Assembly: GCA_965140785.1 (NCBI GenBank)
Contig: OZ223519.1
Location: 96,001 to 160,000 of the forward strand
DNA: 64,000 nucleotides
Reading direction: 5' to 3'
From: an uncultured Ruficoccus sp.
Lineage (GTDB): Bacteria; Verrucomicrobiota; Verrucomicrobiia; Opitutales; Cerasicoccaceae
Under the pieces are notes generated by a model, which was not told the origin of the DNA, did no database searches, and saw only the letters and a program-made list of their open reading frames with translations. Within the stretch, counting starts at the first letter, position 1; each line of letters begins with the position of its first letter. Shown here one piece after another: positions 1,242 to 15,231 of the stretch. The position numbers and the translations under genes were made by a program.

Positions 1242-3764
1242 TTATTTATAAATGATTTCAAAAAACGGCGTGCAGTATTTCAGTTGGGAGGTGTTAATAT
1301 TAAGTTTCAACCCTTCCGGTAATTGCTCTGCGGGAACTTCTTGTGCACGAGTGCCATCGAGGTTCAACGCATAAACGGCTGGTGTATTGTTTCGGTTATT
1401 TGCGAGTGCCAAAGAAAACTCGCCAGTTTTCATCAACAATGGTGCTGTTCCTACTGTAAGCAGGCGATTACCATTTGAGTTGGTAGTCATTCCTGTGTTT
1501 ACGCAGTCGGTAGATATTACCAATAGCATATGATTTGTTTCTGTAAGGTCTTTTTCGGTATCAAGAGAGATAATGCTTATCGCGGCGGGCGTAGAGCAGT
1601 TTTTCACCAATAAACAGCCAATTTTAACAGGTCGGTTTTCTTTTATAACAGCGCCTTCGAGACGAGGGGTCTTTGCCTGCATGGTTCCTGTAGAAGTATT
1701 TAGGATAAGTTGTTCGGTTTCGCTCTCGAAAATATTCTTATCTAGATTCGTTTTATTATTTTCGGATAGTATGCCAAGCTTTCTTAGATCACGGACTATT
1801 TTGCGGGAAATTTCAGGAATTTGTGAATTCTCAATAGTAGTGACTGCTTCCACGCTCATTCCTGCTGCTCTGGCGAAATGGCGGGGAACAATTTCTAGAT
1901 CTGCTTGAATATTGGCAAAATTATTCCCATGGGAGCTTTGAGAATATCGCATGCCAACTTTTGTTAATAAAAAAGTTTTGGTGTATTCAATAGACAGGGC
2001 ATCTAGGCGGTTCGCGGATTCAAGAATTTTCGGTGTCACTAAAAATTCGACATTATGCTTAGCAGTTTCAACGTCGCCCCGCAAAAAACCAAACACATTA
2101 ACAACATCCGATGCGCGGTAAATGGGATCACGATAGTCTGAATAAAAATGAGGCTTTAATGGTGAGAAATGATCATTAACAATTAACATGCTTCCATGCG
2201 GCTGCAAGACGTCAATCCCGTTTAATGCAGAGTATGAGGCGACGAAAAGTCCAGCTTCATGGCGGTAAGGATTTGGTATAACGTCGGCATATTCCATGAT
2301 CATGCATGGAGCGTTAATATTTCGTTTAGACAGAATGCGGGCTAGATATTTTCCGTTGTCCGCGATGCTACTTTGAGTGCTTATAGCAATTTCACGGTTG
2401 CCGATAGTTTTGTATCCAGGAACAGAACTGCCCTTACGTGGTAAGCCGGGATGACCATGGTAAGAATGCAATGATATAACATCCATATCTGCCCATCCCG
2501 GGGCATCAATCATACGCATGTATAAATCCCAATTAGTGACAAGCCCTTTGTAGCCCACTTTGCGAATAGTATTGATGTAAAATTGGTTCATGTCCTCAAT
2601 TTTTTCGAGCATGAAATCGGCCGCTTCACAGCCATCTGCTGAGTCGCTCTTTAGCAGTTTTTCACTGAGCTTTGGTGCATTGGGGCCGTAGAACTGTTGC
2701 CAGTCAGGCTCGAACGCGCTCAAGTACGACGGCGTCACCCGAAAATCCTGCTCATTCATAAAGAGCATACAGGCAAAGACGGGGTCGTCTTTCCACTTTT
2801 TTCCATTAACGGTGTTAGTTCGATTGAGGAGATAAGTTATGCCCGCTTTCCAGTTTTGACGAAACTCCTCGTTGACATAAAGCTGAGCATTAAATTCCTT
2901 TCCTTGAAGATCTTTGCCTACCCAATGCCCTGGTTGTTGCGCATCCGTCCAGCCAGCAAAGGATGCCATGATATCAAAATAAACATAGATTCCACGTTTT
3001 CCTAATTCTTCCAATATGTAGTCGAATCTTTGCAATCTTTCTTCGTCGAAATATTCACGAAAATCTTCCTCGTTCTGAGGGATGAAAGATACATCTTCAA
3101 TGGTTACGCCATAACGATAGTATTTTGACTTTTTAAAAACCGGTCCATGGAAGCGAACCATATTATAACCTTGTAACATTAGATTATTGATGTAGTTGTC
3201 AATGAAGCCCTTGCCGATATTCGTTCTAAATGGAAAACTGCACGAACGGAAACGTACCGGTGTGCTAAGGTCATCTTCAAATGCCAGCTTTCCCTCTTTA
3301 TTGATGGTGAGTCGACCCTTCTCACCGGCTGGTACGCGCACCGGAATATTGCTGAAATCCAGTGCGCTTCCCTTTTTGATAGGAAGGAAATTACCATTAG
3401 AATTCCCCATATAGACTGGTCGCCAGTTTTTTCCGGGAAGGTATTGGACGACTTGATTTCCGTAAGGCAATATCCCGGTATCGTCCGCATACAGTTCTGG
3501 GGCTTCCAAGATTGTGTTAGGCGGAAGAGTTAGTGTGATCTCTGAAGAGTAACCCAATGAGGATGGCTCAATTACAAAGGGAAAAACTACTTTATTCCAT
3601 ACGCTACTAAGTAGAAAATCATGGCCAAATGGTTGAATGCTTGCTGGTTTGGTGTCGATTTTCACGACTGCAGGTGAAGCATTTTTGGCCCAGAAGCATA
3701 GCGAGTACACTTTACCGAGCTTAATTTTATTACCGGGTATTTTCAGCGAGATGACCGTGTCCAC
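1242..3764 (-). CDS. Glycoside hydrolase, GH5/clan GH-A-like, N-terminally truncated by an IS
   Basis: 840 aa; NMVRFH, LFMNEQ (acid/base), LHSYHGHP and IMEY (nucleophile); AT-rich; the first 13 nt lie inside the IS left end. Confidence 0.7.
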   Translation of the reverse strand: MDTVISLKIPGNKIKLGKVYSLCFWAKNASPAVVKIDTKPASIQPFGHDFLLSSVWNKVVFPFVIEPSSLGYSSEITLTLPPNTILEAPELYADDTGILPYGNQVVQYLPGKNWRPVYMGNSNGNFLPIKKGSALDFSNIPVRVPAGEKGRLTINKEGKLAFEDDLSTPVRFRSCSFPFRTNIGKGFIDNYINNLMLQGYNMVRFHGPVFKKSKYYRYGVTIEDVSFIPQNEEDFREYFDEERLQRFDYILEELGKRGIYVYFDIMASFAGWTDAQQPGHWVGKDLQGKEFNAQLYVNEEFRQNWKAGITYLLNRTNTVNGKKWKDDPVFACMLFMNEQDFRVTPSYLSAFEPDWQQFYGPNAPKLSEKLLKSDSADGCEAADFMLEKIEDMNQFYINTIRKVGYKGLVTNWDLYMRMIDAPGWADMDVISLHSYHGHPGLPRKGSSVPGYKTIGNREIAISTQSSIADNGKYLARILSKRNINAPCMIMEYADVIPNPYRHEAGLFVASYSALNGIDVLQPHGSMLIVNDHFSPLKPHFYSDYRDPIYRASDVVNVFGFLRGDVETAKHNVEFLVTPKILESANRLDALSIEYTKTFLLTKVGMRYSQSSHGNNFANIQADLEIVPRHFARAAGMSVEAVTTIENSQIPEISRKIVRDLRKLGILSENNKTNLDKNIFESETEQLILNTSTGTMQAKTPRLEGAVIKENRPVKIGCLLVKNCSTPAAISIISLDTEKDLTETNHMLLVISTDCVNTGMTTNSNGNRLLTVGTAPLLMKTGEFSLALANNRNNTPAVYALNLDGTRAQEVPAEQLPEGLKLNINTSQLKYCTPFFEIIYK

Positions 3765-3817
3765 TTAAACTGTGCCACTTGCAAAGTTAGTCTGAGTGCT
3801 TAGAAAGGACTCAGACG

Positions 3818-4084
3818 ATGAAAGGCAAGCGATACAGTACAGAGCAAAAAATCCGCATTTTACGCGCCGCTGATGCTGGCAGAGCGATCGTGGATGTCTG
3901 CCGCGAGGCAGGGATCAGCGAGCAGACGTTCCACCGCTGGAAGCGGGAGCTTGGGATGCTGGAAGTCGATCAGGCCAAGCAACTGAAGGAACTGCAAAAG
4001 GAGAACGCTCGGCTGAAGCGTATGCTGGCGGACGAGATACTTGGTAAGGAGCTGCTGAAGGAGGCGCTCGAAAAAAAATGGTAA
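3818..4084 (+). CDS. IS3-family transposase OrfA (HTH)
   Basis: MKGKRYSTEQKIRIL...VCREAGISEQTFHRWK, followed by a leucine-zipper-like segment. Confidence 0.9.
   Translation: MKGKRYSTEQKIRILRAADAGRAIVDVCREAGISEQTFHRWKRELGMLEVDQAKQLKELQKENARLKRMLADEILGKELLKEALEKKW
4071..4078 (+). other. -1 programmed frameshift slippery site (A8)
   Basis: AAAAAAAA at the orfA/orfB overlap, as expected in IS3-family elements. Confidence 0.75.
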
Positions 4085-5019
4085 GCCCTGCACACAAGCG
4101 CGAGATGGCGCAAACTCTGGTGTCGCAGGGCAGATGTTCAGCGCGGGCGGCCTGCCGTCACTTTGGGTTGCATCGCAGTACCTTCGGCTATCAGGCGAAG
4201 GAGACTACGCCCTGGTTGGCAAAGTTACGTGGGGCTTTGCGTCGCAAGAGCGAAGCGCATCCCGAGCTGGGTTACCCGAAAATCACTCATCTACTCAAGC
4301 GCGATGGTTGGGACGTAGGTAAGCGGCTGGTGCAGCGCCTGCGCCAGGAGATGGGGCTGAAGTGTCCGACTAAGAAGCCTCGTCAGCGTCGGCGCGGCCC
4401 CTCGACGGGCTTACCGACAAAGGCTACTCATCGCAACCACGTGTGGACCTGCGACTTCGTGGCCGACCGTACGGCTAAGGGCGGATCAATCCGCATGCTC
4501 ACGGTACTCGATGAGTACACCCGTGAGTGCCTGTGCATCCACGTCGATCGCCACCTCAACGCCGCCAAGGTGCGAGCCGTCATGAGCGAGTTGATCAGTG
4601 CCTACGGCAGCCCCGAGCACATCCGTAGCGACAACGGCAGCGAGTTTATCGAGAAGAGCCTGCGTAAATGGTACGCGGACGAGGAGATCAAGACGCTCTA
4701 CATTGAGCCGGGCAGTCCCTGGCAGAACGGCTACATAGAATCCTTCAACGGCAGACTCCGCGATGAGTGCCTCAACCGCGAGTGGTTTTATACGCTCACC
4801 GAGGCACGCGTGGTCATTGAGGACTGGAGGTGGAAATACAACAACATCCGCCCGCACCGTTCACTCGGACTGCTCACGCCGCTCGAGTTTGCAGCCAAAG
4901 AAACCGCACCAACCCCCTTCGACATCAACTTCCAAGGCATGGGCTACACTCGGGCTACGCCCTCCTTCCGCCCAAGCCTTGACACCCTCTACAACCTAAC
5001 CCTAGAATCACATCATTAA
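4078..5019 (+). CDS. IS3-family transposase OrfB (DDE/rve)
   Basis: WTCDF, IRSDNGSEF, PGSPWQNGYIESFNGRLRDECLN and YNNIRPHRSL. Confidence 0.93.
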   Translation: MVSPAHKREMAQTLVSQGRCSARAACRHFGLHRSTFGYQAKETTPWLAKLRGALRRKSEAHPELGYPKITHLLKRDGWDVGKRLVQRLRQEMGLKCPTKKPRQRRRGPSTGLPTKATHRNHVWTCDFVADRTAKGGSIRMLTVLDEYTRECLCIHVDRHLNAAKVRAVMSELISAYGSPEHIRSDNGSEFIEKSLRKWYADEEIKTLYIEPGSPWQNGYIESFNGRLRDECLNREWFYTLTEARVVIEDWRWKYNNIRPHRSLGLLTPLEFAAKETAPTPFDINFQGMGYTRATPSFRPSLDTLYNLTLESHH

Positions 5020-5067
5020 CCCGCTCAGACTAACTCTCAATGCGGTACAGTTTGCGTAGGCAGGTCA

Positions 5068-6240
5068 CGGGTAAACCGATCGTTGATGTCTGCCGCGAGG
5101 CAGGGATCAGTGAGCAGACGTTCCACCGCTGGAAGCGTGAGCTTGGGATGTTGGAAGTTGACCAGGCCAAGCAGTTGAAGGAACTGCTGAAGGAGGCTCT
5201 CGAAAAAAAAATGGTAAGCCCTGCACACAAGCGCGAGATGGCGCAAACTCTGGTGTCGCAGGGCAGATGTTCAGCGCGGGCGGCCTGCCGTCACTTTGGG
5301 TTGCATCGAAGCACGTTTGGCTATCAGGCGAAGGAAGCTGCCCCTTGGTTGGCAAGGTTACGTGGAGCTTTGCGTCGCAAGAGCGAAGCGCATCCCGAGC
5401 TGGGTTACCCGAAAATCACGCGCCTGCTGAAAAAGGACGGCTGGGATATCGGTAAACGGCTGGTGCAGCGCCTGCGTCAGGAGATGGGGCTGAAGTGTCC
5501 GACCAAGAAGCCACGTCAGCGTCGGCGTGGTCCCTCGACGGGCTTGCCGACAAAGGCCACGCACCAGGGCCACGTGTGGACCTGCGACTTTGTTGCGGAC
5601 CGCACGGCTAAGGGTGGCTCCATCCGCATGCTCACGGTGCTCGACGAGTTTACCCGCGTACCGAACTGAGGCGAAGCCTCGGTGACAAAGCGCAGCGCCC
5701 ATGCCTGTGCATCCATGTGGATCGCCACCTCAACGCCGCCAAGGTGCGGGCCGTCATGAGTGAGTTGATCAGTGCCTACGGCAGCCCCGAGCACATTCGC
5801 TCCGACAACGGTTCGGAGTTTATCGAGAAGAGTCTGCGGGGTTGGTATGCCGACGAGGGCATCAAGACACTCTACATCGAACCGGGCAGCCCCTGGCAAA
5901 ACGGCTACATCTAGTCCTTCAACGGACGACTACGCGACGAGTGTCTCAACCGCGAGTGGTTTTACACGCTCACCGAGGCACGCGTTGTCATCGAAGATTG
6001 GCGCTGGAAGTATAACAACATCCGCCCGCATCGTTCTCTCGGACTGCTCACGCCACTTGAGTTTGCAGCAAAAGAAACAGCACCAGAACTCTTCGAAACC
6101 AACCTCCAAGGCATGGGCTACACTCGGGCTACGCCCTCCTTCCGCCCATGCCTTGATACCCTCTACAACCGAACACTCAATCACATCATTAATCCGCTCA
6201 GACTAACTCTCAATGCGGTACAGTTTGCGTAGGCAGGTTA
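5068..6240 (+). mobile_element. IS3-family copy 2, 5'-truncated pseudo-element
   Basis: Starts mid-orfA right after the copy 1 IRR; 60-nt deletion in orfA, A9 tract, 42-nt insert at 5659-5700, TAG at 5912-5914; IRR ends TA rather than CA. Confidence 0.9.
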
Positions 6241-6404
6241 GGTGTTTTTTCTAAAACATATTGTTCGATTTCTTTGCCGAAATAATTCTGACACTTGTCA
6301 CAAACCTTTCCTTTGAGCACTAAATCATCGTTTCCGAGTGACTCAGGAATAATATGCTCAATCGTTGAGAAAGGGCCATCGGCTTTGCAAAAAACGCATT
6401 TCAT
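6241..6404 (-). pseudogene. HNH endonuclease fragment truncated by IS copy 2
   Basis: MKCVFC...EHIIPESLG...VCDKCQNYFG; the frame runs into the IRR at 6240. Confidence 0.7.
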
Positions 6405-6706
6405 GCTTGGACCTAATCTTTAAGAGCGATTCCCATCCAGTGCTTCGCGTAGCATGTTCAGATGATGTATGGTGGTCAAGTTTGGTGTTGAATTGTTACC
6501 GTTTGTTTGAACAGCGGAGACTCTGCATACCCCATACCTCCAAGACTGTTGATTTAGCTGGGCCGATTCTGAGGTGGTTTTCAGAAAAAGGGCCGGGATT
6601 TTTGGCGGGGGCATTGGGGCTGTGGAAGGGGGCGATTCTGGCGGTTGAAACTCAGAATACGGCTTTTGGAAGCGGGGTTGCGTAAGCTTTTGCTGGCAGC
6701 CACTTA

Positions 6707-6744
6707 CAAAAAATCCCGCTCGGTGTGCGAGGCGGGATTTTTTG
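6707..6744. terminator. Bidirectional terminator-like hairpin
   Basis: CAAAAAATCCCGC-N12-GCGGGATTTTTTG. Confidence 0.65.
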
Positions 6745-7053
6745 TGGCAGGGGTGGTCGGTGTGCCCGCGACAGGAAAAAGATGGGGTGGCAAGCGGGAC
6801 CGTCTTCGGAGGAATTCACGCAGTTCGGCGCCCCTTTCCGAACTCTCTTCAGACCTTTTATCGTTTCAGGGCCATAAAAGCGTGTCGTATTGACTCAATT
6901 TTGGGTTTTGTCAGACAGCGACAAGCGTCTCCTTTCCATTTCTGGGTTGGGCCTCGCGATAATAGTAGTTCAGCAAGTCTCCCAGCTGTGCGTGCTGGCT
7001 GACGCACTGCCTGTCACTTTTACAAATAGCTGAGGATTTATCGACCTTAGCGG

Positions 7054-8040
7054 GAGTGTAGCCCATGTCCTGGAAGTTGATTTCGAAGAAGTCTGGTGCG
7101 GTTTCTTTTGCTGCAAACTCGAGCGGCGTGAGCAGTCCGATGGAACGGTGCGGACGGATGTTGTTGTACTGGGCGCTTCGCTAGTGTCGTCGTTACGCTC
7201 CTCGGTAGTCGGAGCGGATGTGCTCGGGGCTGCCATAGGCACTGATCAGTTCGCTCATGACGGCTCTGACTTTGGCGGTGTTGAGGTAGCGATCAACATG
7301 GATGCACAGACATGGGCGCTGCGCTTTGTCACCGAGGCTTCGCCTCAGTTCGGTACGCGGGTGTACTCGTCGAGCACAGTGAGCATGCGGATAGATTCGC
7401 CTTTGGCCGTGTGATCGGCCACTACCGAGCGCGGAGCGCGACATGACCACAAGAAAACAAGTCGCAGGTCCACACGTGGTTGCGATGAGTAGCCTTCATC
7501 GGTAAGCCCGTCGAGGGACCGTGCCGACGCTGACGAGGCTTCTTGGTCGGACACTTCAGCCCCATCTTTTGGCGCAGAGGTTGCGCCATCTCGCGCTTGT
7601 GTGCAGGGCTTATCGAGTCCGCGAGGCAGGACTCGCCATTTTCTCCGAGCGCCTCCTTCAGAAGCTTCTTGCCCAGTATCTCGTCGGCTAGCATGCGCTT
7701 CAGCCGTGCGTGTCAGGCCTTCTCGCTACGCTCGTGAACTCCTTTTGCAGTTCCTTCAGTTGCTTGGCCTGATCGACTTCCAGCATCCCAAGTGTCTTCG
7801 CTTTCGCTCGAGTGTCGCCGTGCCAATCGGCACAGGCTTGGTACGCGTTTCCAGCGGTGGAACGTCTGCTCGCTGATCCCCCGCCTCTCGGCAGACATCA
7901 ACGATCGATTGGCCCGCATCAGCGGCCCGTAATAGGCGGATCTTTTGTTCGGTACTGTATCGCTTGCCTTTCATCGTCTGAGTCCTTTCTAAGCACTCAG
8001 ACTAACTTTGCAAGCGGACCAGTTTAAGTGGACACGGTCA
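7054..8040 (-). mobile_element. IS3-family copy 3, heavily decayed and lacking its IRR
   Basis: IRL at 8040; orfA/orfB homology broken by two ~200-nt deletions and six short inserts. Confidence 0.9.
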
Positions 8041-8057
8041 ATAATCGTCTTGTTGTC

Positions 8058-9293
8058 CTAAGTGGAAGTAGCCTCAATGAGCGTCTCAACCGGCGTGAAA
8101 GCAACATCCACACGGCCTAGCACCGTTGTTGTGTAGCACAGGTAGCGGTCTGAGGCGCAGAACTGGGGGTGGGGATGGACGTGGTAATTGCGTTGCGATT
8201 TAGTCGGACGTGGCATCTGTGAGACGATGTTTACTTCGTGCCCAGTTTTGCGATTCAGAAATGCAACCCGACTTTCGGAAGGAAGCTGCGGCGGCTGGGA
8301 ATCGGCGACCAGATAACTCCCGGTGCGGTCGGAATGGGCATGGGAGGCATGCGTGAGCGGCCAGACCAATTCCGGAATCGGCGAAGACACACACGCCCGC
8401 TCCACGCCGGTGCCATAGTGGACATACCAGACTTTTCTGCCATCGGCGTCCCACCACTCATGCCCGTGCATGGCACGACAATCCGTAGGGTGCCTGCTGG
8501 AGACGCCGTGAAGATGCTCATTTGTCATGGTCGTCTCACCCTTGTAGGGGATCGGCTGCGCAAAGAGCGGAGTGGCCTTTTTTTCGCGCCGGATCAGCCA
8601 GATTCTGTTCTCATAACCTGTGACGTTTCCTGTAATGGGGTGGACGGCGTAATCCTGGGCAATCATTTGAACGTCTGGATCCGTCGGACTAAACTGTCCA
8701 TGGTTATAGCAGCGGTCGAATCGCTGCCATAGTTCGACCTGGCTGCCGTCAAGAGGGATGCTTCCCACCAGCCATTCGGCTCCGAATTCAGCGTCGAAAT
8801 TGAGCGAACGCTTGTCCGCCGAAAACGTAAGATGGGTGGCAACCCGCACTGGCTGACGGCTGCGCGCGAGCTCTTGCGGCAGTCGATTAACCAGGCGAGG
8901 CTTATCGTCTCGACCGGGGCCACGTTTCCAAACCTCAAGGTTACTGCACCAGTAGACCTCTGCAGAGTCGGTATCAACCAGCGGCGATGCGTCCAGAAAC
9001 TGTGTCTCGGGAAAGTGCTCGATGCGTCCCCTGGCAAAGTCGCAAACGCCCAGCATGCGTCCTTGGCGACTACTGCCGCCCGGAGGGCATGCGAAGTAGA
9101 ACCAGCAGAAGCGCCCGTCCGCGCTCATGCCCGGGTTGACGAAATAGAAGGACTGCTGCAACTCGGCGACACGGGAAGTGAGGATGTAGCTGACAATTCC
9201 TGACTTCGGATCTTGCCAGGGGCTAACCAATGAGGACTTGGAAATGGTTGGCCTGCTCCGTTGCTGAGTGTTCGACAAAATAGTGGTTGACAT
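8058..9293 (-). CDS. Oligogalacturonate lyase-like beta-propeller protein
   Basis: N-terminal WQDPKSG...YFVNP, NHGQFSPTDP, HEWW and C-terminal HPHPQF; start uncertain. Confidence 0.6.
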   Translation of the reverse strand: MSTTILSNTQQRSRPTISKSSLVSPWQDPKSGIVSYILTSRVAELQQSFYFVNPGMSADGRFCWFYFACPPGGSSRQGRMLGVCDFARGRIEHFPETQFLDASPLVDTDSAEVYWCSNLEVWKRGPGRDDKPRLVNRLPQELARSRQPVRVATHLTFSADKRSLNFDAEFGAEWLVGSIPLDGSQVELWQRFDRCYNHGQFSPTDPDVQMIAQDYAVHPITGNVTGYENRIWLIRREKKATPLFAQPIPYKGETTMTNEHLHGVSSRHPTDCRAMHGHEWWDADGRKVWYVHYGTGVERACVSSPIPELVWPLTHASHAHSDRTGSYLVADSQPPQLPSESRVAFLNRKTGHEVNIVSQMPRPTKSQRNYHVHPHPQFCASDRYLCYTTTVLGRVDVAFTPVETLIEATST

Positions 9294-14813: not shown

Positions 14814-15060
14814 ATGAACCGTCAGCAGCAAGTCATCGAGTATTTGGTTGAGGAGAACCGTACTCTCCGTGAGCAACTGAATATCCACGCCAAGGGCAAA
14901 CGCATTCGCTTCAACGCGAACCAGCGCAGGCGTTTGGCCGGGAAAGACCGTTGCCTGGGACGCAAGATGCTGATGAAGATCGCGACGCTGGTGACACCGG
15001 AGACGATCTACCGCTGGCATCGTCAACTCGTCGCTATGGCCTATACTCCGAAAGGTCGGG
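14814..15060 (+). pseudogene. Transposase/integrase N-terminal remnant
   Basis: QVIEYLVEENRTLREQL...QRRRLA...VTPETIYRWHRQL; no catalytic domain follows. Confidence 0.6.
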
Positions 15061-15231
15061 ATTATTCTGCTGCCCATGCGAGGCGGTCCGCATTCCTTCA
15101 ACCTGACGCCCGCCGGCCAGGATCTGCGGCCAGCGCTGCTGGATTTCCTGAAGGAGAACCTTGGCGAGCCACATCAAAAATCCTAGTCAAAAAAACGCTC
15201 ATTCTCGTATCAATCCCTATACTGACGCCCC

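Follow-up and report, generated by a model that had tools for sequence, protein, structure and literature searches.

The window analysed here is a 64,000-nt stretch of contig OZ223519.1 (positions 96,001 to 160,000) from an uncultured Ruficoccus sp. Three IS3-type copies lie close together near its start. Copy 1, an intact IS3-A, is one of 11 genomic copies with 98–100% mutual identity and provides the empty reference, and copies 2 and 3 are degenerate relics, denoted IS3-A'. The features of the locus are as follows.

3752–5067, plus strand: IS3-family element IS3-A, copy 1, intact (empty reference); Pfam rve, rve_3 and HTH_21 on orfB
5070–6245, plus strand: IS3-A' relic, copy 2, degenerate and 5'-truncated, about 88% identical to copy 1
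5659–5701, plus strand: unit T1 in copy 2, at TRE|CL codons
7000–8040, minus strand: degenerate IS3-A' relic, copy 3, with six inserts and two internal deletions
7170–7207, minus strand: insert 1, unit T2 (core plus GCGNAGCGCCCA tail), adjoining a deletion of about 190 nt
7313–7355, minus strand: insert 2, unit T1 (hairpin core plus tail), replacing AG of CGTG|AG|TGCCTG (RECL codons)
7423–7459, plus strand: insert 3, unit T4, the sole copy 3 insert in the opposite orientation
7613–7635, minus strand: insert 4 (i4), a 23-nt perfect hairpin with a 7-bp stem, a pure insertion with no second genomic copy
7711–7738, minus strand: insert 5, unit i5 (28 nt, ending TGACA), replacing AA
7793–7843, minus strand: insert 6, unit T3 (hairpin core plus GCGAAAGC/GAAGACA tail), replacing AG of GCGGG|AG|CTTGG

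Global alignment of copy 1 (3746–5075, plus strand) to the reverse complement of copy 3 (6981–8050) placed insert blocks at 7171–7207, 7314–7355, 7423–7458, 7613–7635, 7712–7738 and 7793–7843, where the original prediction had put them. Five of these are clean net gains (+41, +35, +23, +26 and +49 nt). The sixth, 7171–7207, substitutes for some 190 nt of the IS and corresponds to the insert said to sit in a deletion of some 200 nt; a second deletion, of 212 nt at 7576/7577, carries no insert. Block 7613–7635, claimed to lie next to the frameshift signal, does start 4 nt past the A-run of that site. The public runs are contigs, broken up over repeats, and the filled form recurs in those of two studies: run X2 covers 7201–7362 and 7333–7423 with 0 differences, and run X3, from the other study, covers 7385–7577 and 7763–8006 with 10 and 21 other letters differing. 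Run X1 leaves parts uncovered and X4 has no match.

Five of the six inserts were found again in the genome with other flanks, 7613–7635 being unique. T2 appears in three other relics as a simple insertion at W|K|YNN, and its core is found at both WKYNN and DNGSEF sites. The T1 units of copies 2 and 3 are identical over 42/42 positions in flanks that are 88% identical; T1 also occurs in an IS3-C relative and at site s1 (VEEN) of a further family, IS-B, in addition to the RECL codons of IS3-A'. T3 is present at WKR|E and, in four further IS3-type relics, at codons of the RDE|CLN type. T4 and i5 are common to IS3-A' and IS3-C: T4 is present in the three IS3-C copies, at C48:54830 and at G003:C5, and i5 is identical in the IS3-C copies despite far diverged flanks. 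Forty instances of about nine unit types, 23–51 nt long, were counted in the genome; the proposed repertoire is a small one.

The units are discrete, measure about 21–51 nt and, in the commonest class, start with T(A/T)CC and end with CA. Their layout would consist of a T(A/T)CCGA 5' end, a variable small palindrome or GCGNAGC mini-hairpin, and a 3' end in GACA, in many cases extended by another mini-hairpin as a tail that finishes in CCCA or GACA. The motif GCGNAGC occurs five times in 216 nt of inserts, against 0.23 expected (Poisson P ~5e-6), and is absent from the remaining 825 nt of copy 3; together with GCGNNAGC it is described as forming exceptionally stable, nuclease-resistant DNA mini-hairpins (PMC13037366). 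T1, T3, T4, i4 and s2 fold as hairpins, and in nearest-neighbour DNA folding T1, T3, i4 and s2 beat their shuffles (z -1.6 to -3.9), while T1b, T2 and i5, all of which contain GCGNAGC, were no more structured than shuffles. No inverted unit pairs were seen, which sets the units apart from REPIN doublets; they stand singly or head to tail (core plus tail). The proposed picture of separate units, alike at their ends and different in their hairpin interiors, was borne out.

The shared ends hold as part of whole units and fail as a bare motif. The proposed genome-wide search for TGTC..GGTA by itself gave no enrichment: read on the other strand, TACCGA..GACA was found 121 times against 119 for the reversed motif, and 65 against 52 once a hairpin of at least 5 bp was required, which we counted as not enriched. 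Looser or altered forms behaved alike (1006 against 1104 for TACC..GACA; 142 against 116 for TTCCGA..GACA). Only the whole units are real; the generic motif alone is not. Nor did the units appear to be templated from their flanks (summed longest common substrings 88, against 90.5 in shuffles, p 0.78) or derived from IS ends, since unit cores matched the ends of IS3-A and IS3-C at chance level (24 comparisons, lowest p 0.08). The latter result, together with the lack of target duplication, rejects a MITE moved by a DDE transposase. Group I/II introns, ribozymes and other catalogued RNAs were likewise rejected, as Rfam 15 (E up to 1, positions 3600–8200) returned three weak matches, all at 6666–6780 and none in a unit. 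Unit s2 copies 8 nt of its own right flank.

The comparison of filled and empty sites that had been called for yielded base-exact junctions. Each of the 11 contexts of the T(A/T)CC..CA class that have an empty relative shows replacement of two purines (AG in 8, AA in 2, GA in 1), and target duplication is seen in 0/11, in line with the original claim of its absence and of repeated precise insertion. The base before the unit is G in 10 of the 11 contexts, GAGT is the target in 6, and the full pattern G|A..G|(T/A) fails in 4. In other genomes, 13/15 core copies have G-T-(T/A) immediately 5' of the core. GAGT is common in any genome and the same few sites are used all the same, so recognition must exceed 4 nt or have the help of homology. 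We know of no transposition chemistry that predicts these junctions, and the filled and empty paralogs that define them offer a concrete handle for finding the enzyme.

All 40 instances in this genome lie within 30 nt of rve/orfA-like DNA, which makes up 0.82% of it; the units are thus not spread evenly over the neutral DNA of this genome, and no donor array or master copy was found in it outside IS DNA. None of the IS3-A, IS3-C or IS-B copies is split by an insert of 150–25000 nt. This rejects large integrase-borne elements with unit ends at IS3 sites; the genome has 14 integrase-family matches, some a few kb from IS copies.

The IS-B family provides the clearest view of how the units are shared. 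Two of its copies are empty (C26:80632 and C4:131355), three full copies carry inserts of 41, 24/25 and 36 nt at the same three bases, and copies are filled at all three sites or at none. The filled copies differ from one another at dS 0.42–0.53 (dN/dS 0.06–0.19), as they do from the empty ones, and yet their T1 units show 0–2 differences in 43 nt, with flank differences starting 4 nt from the unit. They do not form one clade (3 changes on the tree, AU p 0.036), on a tree that is star-like with no starred branch. Identical placement of near-identical, sharp-edged units in such diverged paralogs points to repeated recent insertion rather than descent. The loop variants of T1 follow the IS family: three IS-B copies have (T,T), and the two IS3-A' relics share (A,C).

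The damage to the host elements is also visible. IS-B copy C26:132541 minus its three inserts has an intact 357-codon frame, T1 contributes an in-frame TGA, and extra lesions are present in 3/4 filled IS-B copies versus 0/2 empty ones. Unit-bridged deletions, with one unit each, were found at C26:99297, C26:178767 and C10:469905. The three IS3-C copies carrying three units are 99.7–99.85% identical in three different flanks, and IS3-C has a further G7-run frameshift. The 11 intact IS3-A copies hold the target codons yet carry no unit; with no new insertion in copies this young, the activity may be extinct in this genome.

Beyond this genome, the T2 core CCGAGGAGCGNAGCGACGACA (at most one mismatch) is spread across the order, in 26/161 genomes and 21/91 genera, with 1 to 73 copies per positive genome, while the reversed-pattern control gave 0 in every genome. 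Nine of 13 fetched loci in other genomes lack rve homology, and some of these are in tandem repeats or intergenic-looking DNA. One copy, L105, sits within gtgaagg-type tandem repeats. In G456, where filled/empty pairs in non-IS DNA were sought, all 11 fetched exact-core copies were at G|AG|T of DNGSEF codons in IS3 genes, and the 9/9 copies examined in G436 were also at DNGSEF codons of IS3 genes. G436 and G472, from another family of the order, share a 33-nt T2-core unit that is 97–100% identical between IS3 copies whose 150-nt flanks have an identity of 0.48–0.67; empty copies in G436 read GGCAGTG|AG|TTCATT, and left and right flanks there are mosaic.

Other units have a narrower range. Within the genus, T1, T3 and T4 are absent from G001, G002 and G004, and G003 holds one T1 and one T4. 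The latter differs from the T4 of copy 3 at 4/37 nt, about as much as the flanks, which argues against strong selection on the unit sequence; it belongs to a relic at another locus, and no orthologous empty site for copy 3 was found in G003. Searches beyond the genus recovered neither T1 nor T4. The T1/T1b tail junction had three matches in 185,579 species genomes, in unrelated taxa and at about chance level; metagenome contigs gave 0 matches for T1 and three for the T4 core, in unrelated contexts and lacking the T4 tail; and the GACA-N2-3-GCGNAGCGCCCA tail junction had 8 single matches (5 with the reversed control) across 400 further genomes of the phylum. Our literature searches found no paper describing the units, none containing the T2 core on either strand, none on Opitutus palindromic repeats with a transposase, and no relevant one on interrupted transposase genes; the supplements of PMC3733652 on intragenic REPs may bear on the cataloguing of such units.

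Taken globally, it is likely that mobile units were put in repeatedly by some dedicated activity, and on balance we lean towards the six inserts being members of an order-wide family of ultra-short, non-autonomous mobile DNA units, of which REP/SDR-like micro-mobile units are the best reading. Mechanistically, an activity supplied in trans would paste a unit into one strand, after a G and over two purines, mostly at G|AG|T, yielding no target duplication, and each unit type would favour a few longer sequences. In IS elements, these favoured sequences would coincide with the codons for conserved Glu residues in rve transposases (RECL, RDECLN, DNGSEF and VEEN). Insertion would shift the frame or add a stop, so that the IS copy dies and decays, and recombination of two units in one IS would delete the stretch between them. 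Inactivation of IS copies by repeated precise insertion implies an activity acting in trans, and to this extent the proposed trans-acting writer is supported, although no candidate gene was tied to the units. Several observations sit less easily with this proposal: simple per-site insertion does not predict the all-or-none pattern of IS-B, the IS-B tree is star-like, T1b, T2 and i5 show no excess structure, and the young IS3-A copies have gained nothing.

A more specific version, which we consider rather unlikely, has a conserved enzyme, kept vertically throughout the order, that would nick one strand twice, two bases apart (G|RR|N), and paste a mini-hairpin of 21–51 nt, each type homing to a target of about 8–15 nt. 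If true, with conserved Glu codons of DDE transposases as the favoured targets, the units would in effect kill IS elements, as a parasite of them or as a host-recruited defence, and would be the smallest mobile DNA with defined junction chemistry. In any case, the units sit below the size range of transposon finders and annotators and yet decide the fate of IS elements here.

The main competitor to dedicated insertion, unlikely in our view, is that rare chance inserts were copied between paralogs by homologous or homeologous recombination, for instance by gene conversion, or by homing once some endonuclease had broken both strands of the empty site. The sorting of T1 loop variants by IS family and the all-or-none filling of IS-B would fit such copying, and the unit-bridged deletions and the mosaic flanks of G436 show that units do take part in recombination; however, polymorphisms only 4 nt from a unit were not co-converted, its edges are sharp, and flanks as dissimilar as those of G436 and G472 make poor recombination substrates. 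Moreover, the same units occupy non-homologous sites (T1 at VEEN and RECL, T3 at WKRE and RDECLN, the T2 core at WKYNN and DNGSEF), different unit types obey one junction rule with the same ends, and the core extends over 21 genera, partly in non-IS DNA. An assembly artefact, or untemplated or flank-templated filler from break repair with no unit identity, has almost no probability left. The region does consist of nested repeats over which the public contigs are fragmented, s2 repeats part of its flank and insert 4 is unique in the genome, but filled forms in the contigs of two studies, the 40 loci here and the occurrence in other species refute this explanation for five of the six inserts, and the flank comparison excludes flank-built units.

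It is improbable, if somewhat less so, that the units serve a host defence in which hairpins bearing stops or frameshifts are written into catalytic-core codons to silence IS elements. Their confinement to rve-type DNA in this genome, the DNGSEF codons hit at all examined loci of G436 (9) and G456 (11), the coincidence of target sites with conserved DDE core motifs and the filling of IS-B copies at every site or none would all suit a defence. Against it are the T2-core loci elsewhere with no rve homology, the unfilled codons of the intact IS3-A copies, the near-identical IS3-C copies that lie in three flanks with their three units, and the lack of a candidate gene. In addition, insertion into an essential gene would be lethal, and selfish units would survive only in dispensable DNA anyway. 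Given the 9/13 loci without rve homology, the data can be accounted for with no dedicated anti-IS function, and the anti-IS reading is weakened. A still more remote reading would make the units old, conserved parts of the IS that are tolerated, bypassed or excised like introns. It draws on the frame restored in C26:132541, on the IS3-C copies found with their units in different flanks and on units far more conserved than host synonymous sites; it is contradicted by net lengths that are mostly non-multiples of three, the in-frame TGA of T1, the additional lesions of filled IS-B copies, the G7-run frameshift of IS3-C, the lack of Rfam matches (introns and ribozymes included), a T4 divergence close to that of its flanks, and, in every other genome examined, an empty state that corresponds to the canonical protein motif.

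With mobile units as the preferred reading, several known systems come close. REP and REPIN sequences associated with RAYT proteins are short palindromic units with a conserved 5' tag, tandem stacking and vertical persistence (PMC3116915, PMC8266576), and REPs occur inside genes of the verrucomicrobium O. terrae (PMC3733652). The units resemble them in tandem stacking, lineage persistence and intragenic copies, and may do so in their palindromes (in T1, T3, T4, i4 and s2, not in T1b, T2 and i5) and in T(A/T)CC after the target G as a 5' tag. They differ in forming no REP doublets, in losing two target bases, in a tag that reads GTAC or GTTC rather than GTAG, and in lacking the high-copy extragenic profile: the 40 copies here are few and none is intergenic, and elsewhere loci are largely non-IS with 1 to 73 copies. 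The units also start with TGTC on the other strand, which recalls the CGTC-tagged repeats, whose tag is often TGTC and for which PMC3733652 gives no dedicated transposase and no report from Verrucomicrobia. Their tails fit CCA as well, but those repeats have 8–9-bp stems starting A-T and 4–5-nt loops (PMC3733652), unlike the 3–8-bp stems or GNA mini-hairpins found here, a comparison made with their description. Elements of the IS200/IS605 group transpose as single strands through HUH enzymes, have hairpins near their ends and neither target duplication nor terminal inverted repeats (PMC8266576), and insert 3' of a fixed 4–5-nt target with no base loss (PMC8266576; 10.1101/279083). The units share the hairpins, the orientation-specific insertion by a short target and, in 11/11 contexts, the lack of duplication and terminal inverted repeats; they depart from the fixed tetra- or pentanucleotide, as only the preceding G is near-constant and two purines are lost in 11/11. 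They are also shorter, at 21–51 nt, than the smallest known miniature IS200/IS605 derivatives, which measure about 100 nt or more.

Rickettsia palindromic elements and other intragenic REPs (summarised in PMC3733652) are likewise small palindromic selfish DNA within protein-coding genes, at recurrent gene positions; the Rickettsia elements span 100–150 nt and keep the reading frame, so that the protein still works, in contrast to the short, frame-breaking units described here. The small dispersed repeats of Nostoc and its relatives (SDR1–8), which Elhai and co-workers reportedly described in 2008 (Genome Res 18:1484), are said to be clade-restricted, dispersed units of about 20–30 nt for which mobility has been argued; they often have a hairpin and can be nested within other repeats or tandem short repeats. 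Size, dispersal, nesting in IS elements or tandem repeats and clade restriction would match; the phylum and the sequences are different, and the present units add a base-defined junction from many filled/empty pairs, the habit of rve codons and one core over 21 genera.

Two Y1_Tnp genes, for proteins of 309 aa, are present in the genome (C10:480126–481055 and C43:224705–225634), so candidate HUH enzymes do exist in spite of the earlier concern over the lack of one. Both are flanked by their own inverted repeats, AAGGGGTCA..CAATAAT, with no unit within 400 nt of either, which rejects a REPtron, that is, a RAYT gene flanked by its REPs. Y1 genes were found in 5/5 unit-rich and 5/5 unit-free genomes tested; nothing therefore ties them to the units, and no enzyme was tied to the units in our searches. 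By analogy, the units might travel as folded single strands, cut and joined by a Y1, RAYT-like enzyme of the HUH kind, an assignment that we put forward as doubtful. For RAYTs, the accessible part of PMC8266576 reports only in vitro cleavage and strand transfer, and no integration of single REPs. An enzyme of that type would make the units the first natural record of integrated single REP-like units, a long-open point for REPs, and any other enzyme would represent a new means of writing short DNA at selected genomic positions. In both cases, the IS relics of these bacteria contain a class of 'unexplainable' frameshifts and internal deletions for which the units account. For TnpAREP, the 5' tetranucleotide sets the dinucleotide, on the 5' or 3' side of the hairpin, where a single-stranded REP is cut, and a change from GTAG to GTAC shifts cleavage to GA and GT (PMC8266576). 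Here the tag in place is G|TAC, with G|T as left junction and G|A..G|T as the usual target; for the GTTC tag of other genomes, a G|T junction would not follow from the same guide rule.

The source genome (4.36 Mb, 59% G+C) is a draft of 50 contigs, and the window corresponds to C48:96001-160000. Between positions 3700 and 8100 of the window, three copies of the same IS3-family element are clustered:

3752-5067, + strand: copy 1, intact IS3-family element
5070-6245, + strand: copy 2, relic, 5'-truncated
7000-8040, - strand: copy 3, relic

In the genome, 11 copies are 98-100% identical to copy 1 (family IS3-A), and several relics, here IS3-A', match it at about 88%. When copy 1 was aligned globally to copy 3 in reverse complement, the six inserts of the original prediction were borne out:

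7170-7207: 37-38 nt, substituting for about 190 nt of IS
7314-7355: net +41 nt
7423-7458: net +35 nt
7613-7635: net +23 nt (unit i4)
7712-7738: net +26 nt
7793-7843: net +49 nt

A second deletion in copy 3, of 212 nt at 7576/7577, is without an insert. The motif GCGNAGC occurs five times in the 216 inserted bases (0.23 expected) and never in the other 825 bases of the copy. Contigs of two public runs support the filled state: those of run X2 cover 7201-7362 and 7333-7423 with 0 differences, and those of run X3, from a separate study, are filled at inserts 3 and 6 with 5-9% other letters. High-depth 'joints' that skip the inserts in public-run contigs correspond to the intact IS copies.

Short-query BLAST located five of the six inserts elsewhere in the genome, in different flanks. 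The bare end motif showed no enrichment in the genome, so it is the units as wholes, and not TGTC..GGTA by itself, that carry the evidence. Nine reference units, searched at E <= 1e-3, yielded 40 instances (T1 9, T1b 5, T2 5, T3 5, T4 5, i5 5, s2 2, s2-like 3, i4 1), a count that omits a small number of truncated or diverged copies. Each of the 40 is no more than 30 nt from rve- or orfA-like DNA by tblastn, which makes up 0.82% of the genome. As the genome's only other repeated mobile family comprises two Y1_Tnp genes, this placement need not mean a preference for rve-type over other IS elements. Units also account for 23 of the 53 small indels (15-90 nt) between paralogous repeats of the genome. 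The hosts belong to three rve-type families, IS3-A' and the following two:

IS3-C: second IS3 element, 1370 nt, ends TGTCTGAG..CTCAGACA
IS-B: IS481-like element, 357 codons, Pfam rve_3 and rve

An IS-B fragment at 14814-15090 of the window is empty at unit site s1. A different IS3-type element, with 68% identity to IS3-A, is present in at least 20 copies in the congener G003, for the most part at the ends of contigs (C10-C19).

On the host coding strand, the main unit class runs from TACCGA through a small palindrome or GNA mini-hairpin to (C/T)GACA, often adding 2-5 nt and a second mini-hairpin, GCGNAGCG, that terminates in CCCA or AAGACA. The central palindrome is where T1, T1b, T2, T3 and T4 mainly differ; T1b resembles a T1 in which each arm of the stem is shorter, and a mini-T3 is present at C4:241638. 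Copies of a unit vary mostly at the middle position of their GNA loops. Nearest-neighbour folding as DNA makes hairpins of T1, T3, i4 and s2 (z -1.6 to -3.9) but not of T1b, T2 and i5, in a model that takes no account of how unusually stable GCGNAGC and GCGNNAGC mini-hairpins are (excerpt of PMC13037366).

A junction rule emerges from 11 site contexts with filled and empty relatives, that is, IS copies with and without a unit at the site.

Site contexts (unit; host or site; sequence, with the two replaced bases between slashes)
1; T1; IS-B site s1; GAGG/AG/AACC
2; T1b; IS-B site s3; GCGTG/AG/TGCC
3; T1; IS3-A'; CCGTG/AG/TGCC
4; T1; IS3-C relative; GCGTG/AG/TGTC
5; T3; WKR/E codons; GCGGG/AG/CTTG
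6; T3; RDE/CLN codons; GATG/AG/TGCC
7; T3; C26 relative; GCAGG/AG/TGCC
8; T2; W/K/YNN codons; GGTGG/AA/ATAC
9; i5; IS3-A' and IS3-C; GGAG/AA/CG
10; T4; IS3-A' and IS3-C, T4's own strand; GAC/GA/AGTC
11; 33-nt unit; G436 (another genome of the order), DNGSEF codons; CAGTG/AG/TTCA

Two purines are replaced in all 11 contexts by a unit that starts with T(A/T)C and finishes with CA; the preceding base is G in 10, and the following base is T in six, A in three and C in two. The predicted lack of target duplication holds in every context, and the predicted replacement of 0-2 nt becomes exactly two purines there, but i4, s2 and s2-like, which are hairpin-only, are pure insertions and may constitute a class separate from the main units. 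In the s2 hairpin insert at C26:164767-164790, the loop repeats 8 nt of the sequence on the right of the insert (GCTACGCC; p 0.01 against shuffles), a hint that this particular unit was templated.

Comparison of filled and empty copies argues for repeated insertion of units rather than descent. In IS-B, two copies are intact and empty, and three full copies are filled at the same three bases; its copies are all-or-none for units. Taking the inserts out leaves an intact frame of 357 codons in one of the filled copies, the others having extra lesions. Over codons 0-320 (0-185 for a truncated copy), the filled copies have a mutual dS of 0.42-0.53 (dN/dS 0.06-0.19) and are no closer to each other than to empty copies. 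By our arithmetic, about 14 differences would be expected at this dS in a neutral 43-nt ancestral stretch; T1 is identical in three IS-B copies and differs by 2 in the fourth, with flank polymorphisms beginning 4 nt away from the unit. The IS-B tree (nine copies, 559 columns, unit columns removed, six recombinant or very short copies excluded) is star-like, needs 3 state changes and rejects a single filled clade (AU p 0.036), a result that is no more than suggestive, as no branch is starred.

The IS3 families point the same way. T1 of copy 2 matches that of copy 3 at 42/42 bases, with flanks at 88%. Units in IS3-C form a mosaic, with i5 in four copies, T1 in one only and s2-like in three only; T4 is in four copies and missing from the C10 copy. 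Units do drift in old lineages: between G003 and copy 3, T4 differs at 4/37 bases, which argues that unit identity elsewhere reflects youth rather than selection. The restriction of units to few sites implies that recognition spans more than four bases or is aided by homology, and conversion among paralogs may therefore be a second route of spread. The 11 young IS3-A copies are without units, so whatever inserts them may have died out in this genome.

Three near-identical IS3-C copies (99.7-99.85%) each carry three units plus a frameshift in a G7 run. The flanks of the three differ, and no duplication of the target is visible there:

C25:51330-52699
C25:73206-74575
C49:932-2304

The IS3-C orfA contains a coding hairpin, CCTTCGC-GCGA-GCGAAGG (element positions 108-127; C25:51437-51456, C25:73313-73332 and the matching place in C49). 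It is flipped in one of three otherwise 99.85% identical copies, the loop being the reverse complement TCGC, and in a third copy the loop is longer by one A.

In G436 left and right unit flanks are likewise mosaic, and several relics show internal deletions bridged by exactly one unit, for example:

C26:99297 and C26:178767: T1 start joined to T1b flank
C10:469905: orfA joined to RDECLN region

Recombination between two units of the same IS should leave just such deletions, with the stretch between the units lost and one unit kept, and this accounts for the 190-nt loss beside insert 1.

Regarding the origin of the units, comparison with shuffles indicates that they are not made from their own flanks; they show no resemblance to IS ends and, in this genome, are not ends of larger elements. 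Rfam gave no match in the units, and nothing in the data requires RNA. Their best analogy is the REP/RAYT and IS200/IS605 world of folded single strands, a 5' tag, no duplication and tag-chosen dinucleotide cleavage. In the REPtron Mb, changing the tag GTAG to GTAC shifted cleavage to GA and GT (excerpt of PMC8266576). Units in place have the tag G/TAC, the left junction G/T and, as commonest target, G/A-G/T; cleavage at both kinds of predicted step, which lie two bases apart, would remove the AG. The analogy fails for 4 of the 11 contexts and for GTTC-tagged copies, and known HUH elements lose no bases. The genome does encode HUH genes, of the kind sought as partners, in two near-identical Y1_Tnp genes of 309 codons, but these have no link to the units:

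C10:480126-481055
C43:224705-225634

Y1 genes occur in every genome tested, unit-bearing or unit-free. Both copies here are framed by inverted repeats AAGGGGTCA..CAATAAT, also found solitary elsewhere in the genome, and after the C10 copy comes the 3' portion of a gene for a tyrosine recombinase.

Matches to T1, T3 and T4 were found in one of four congeners and not outside the genus, genome and metagenome collections giving nothing above chance; the same was true of the tail junction in 400 genomes of the phylum. The T2 core (CCGAGGAGCGNAGCGACGACA, at most one mismatch) occurs in 26 of 161 genomes and 21 of 91 genera of the order, reaching 73 copies per genome, with zero for the reversed control in every genome; G-T-(T/A) stands immediately 5' of it in 13 of 15 copies from other genomes. 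In two genomes of another family, G436 (9 loci read) and G456 (11 loci), a 33-nt unit built on it sits at DNGSEF codons in many diverged IS3 copies. This unit keeps 97-100% identity between copies whose flanks have an identity of 0.48-0.67, and empty copies exist in the same genome. The single T2-core locus fetched from each of nine other genomes has no rve homology, so across the order units are not confined to IS DNA. One core copy lies within tandem short repeats, and three in another genome of the order (G463:C22:35951-36217, locus L109) are exactly 123 nt apart, the unit there being part of a 123-nt tandem repeat.

The units are best read as very small REP/SDR-like mobile repeats. Their nearest described counterparts are the small dispersed repeats (SDR) of Nostoc, REP/BIME/REPIN elements, Rickettsia palindromic elements, and GTAG- and CGTC/TGTC-tagged repeats, including the intragenic REPs of O. 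terrae (excerpt of PMC3733652). The descriptions of all these, as excerpted, include neither this junction rule nor homing to conserved transposase codons. Our literature search returned no paper with the T2 core sequence and none on the topic, and a new insertion chemistry is a real possibility.

Outside IS DNA, the source genome has another dispersed repeat, GTTGTCATCCTGAGCGAGCG[N]AGCGAGTCGAAGGATCTCC, with a GCGNAGC mini-hairpin at its centre. In its intergenic DNA, GTAG-tagged hairpin repeats that have GNA loops are also stacked in dense families, a single locus giving up to 34 short matches, and heptamer arrays occur as well:

C10:44413-44461, C10:85169-85209, C13:29083-29126, C43:104316: GTTGTCATCCTGAGCGAGCG[N]AGCGAGTCGAAGGATCTCC repeat
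C10:86002-86070, C10:138964-139032, C18:65900-65973: GTAG-tagged hairpin repeats, examples
C18:108002-108101, C10:695987-696063: heptamer arrays, examples
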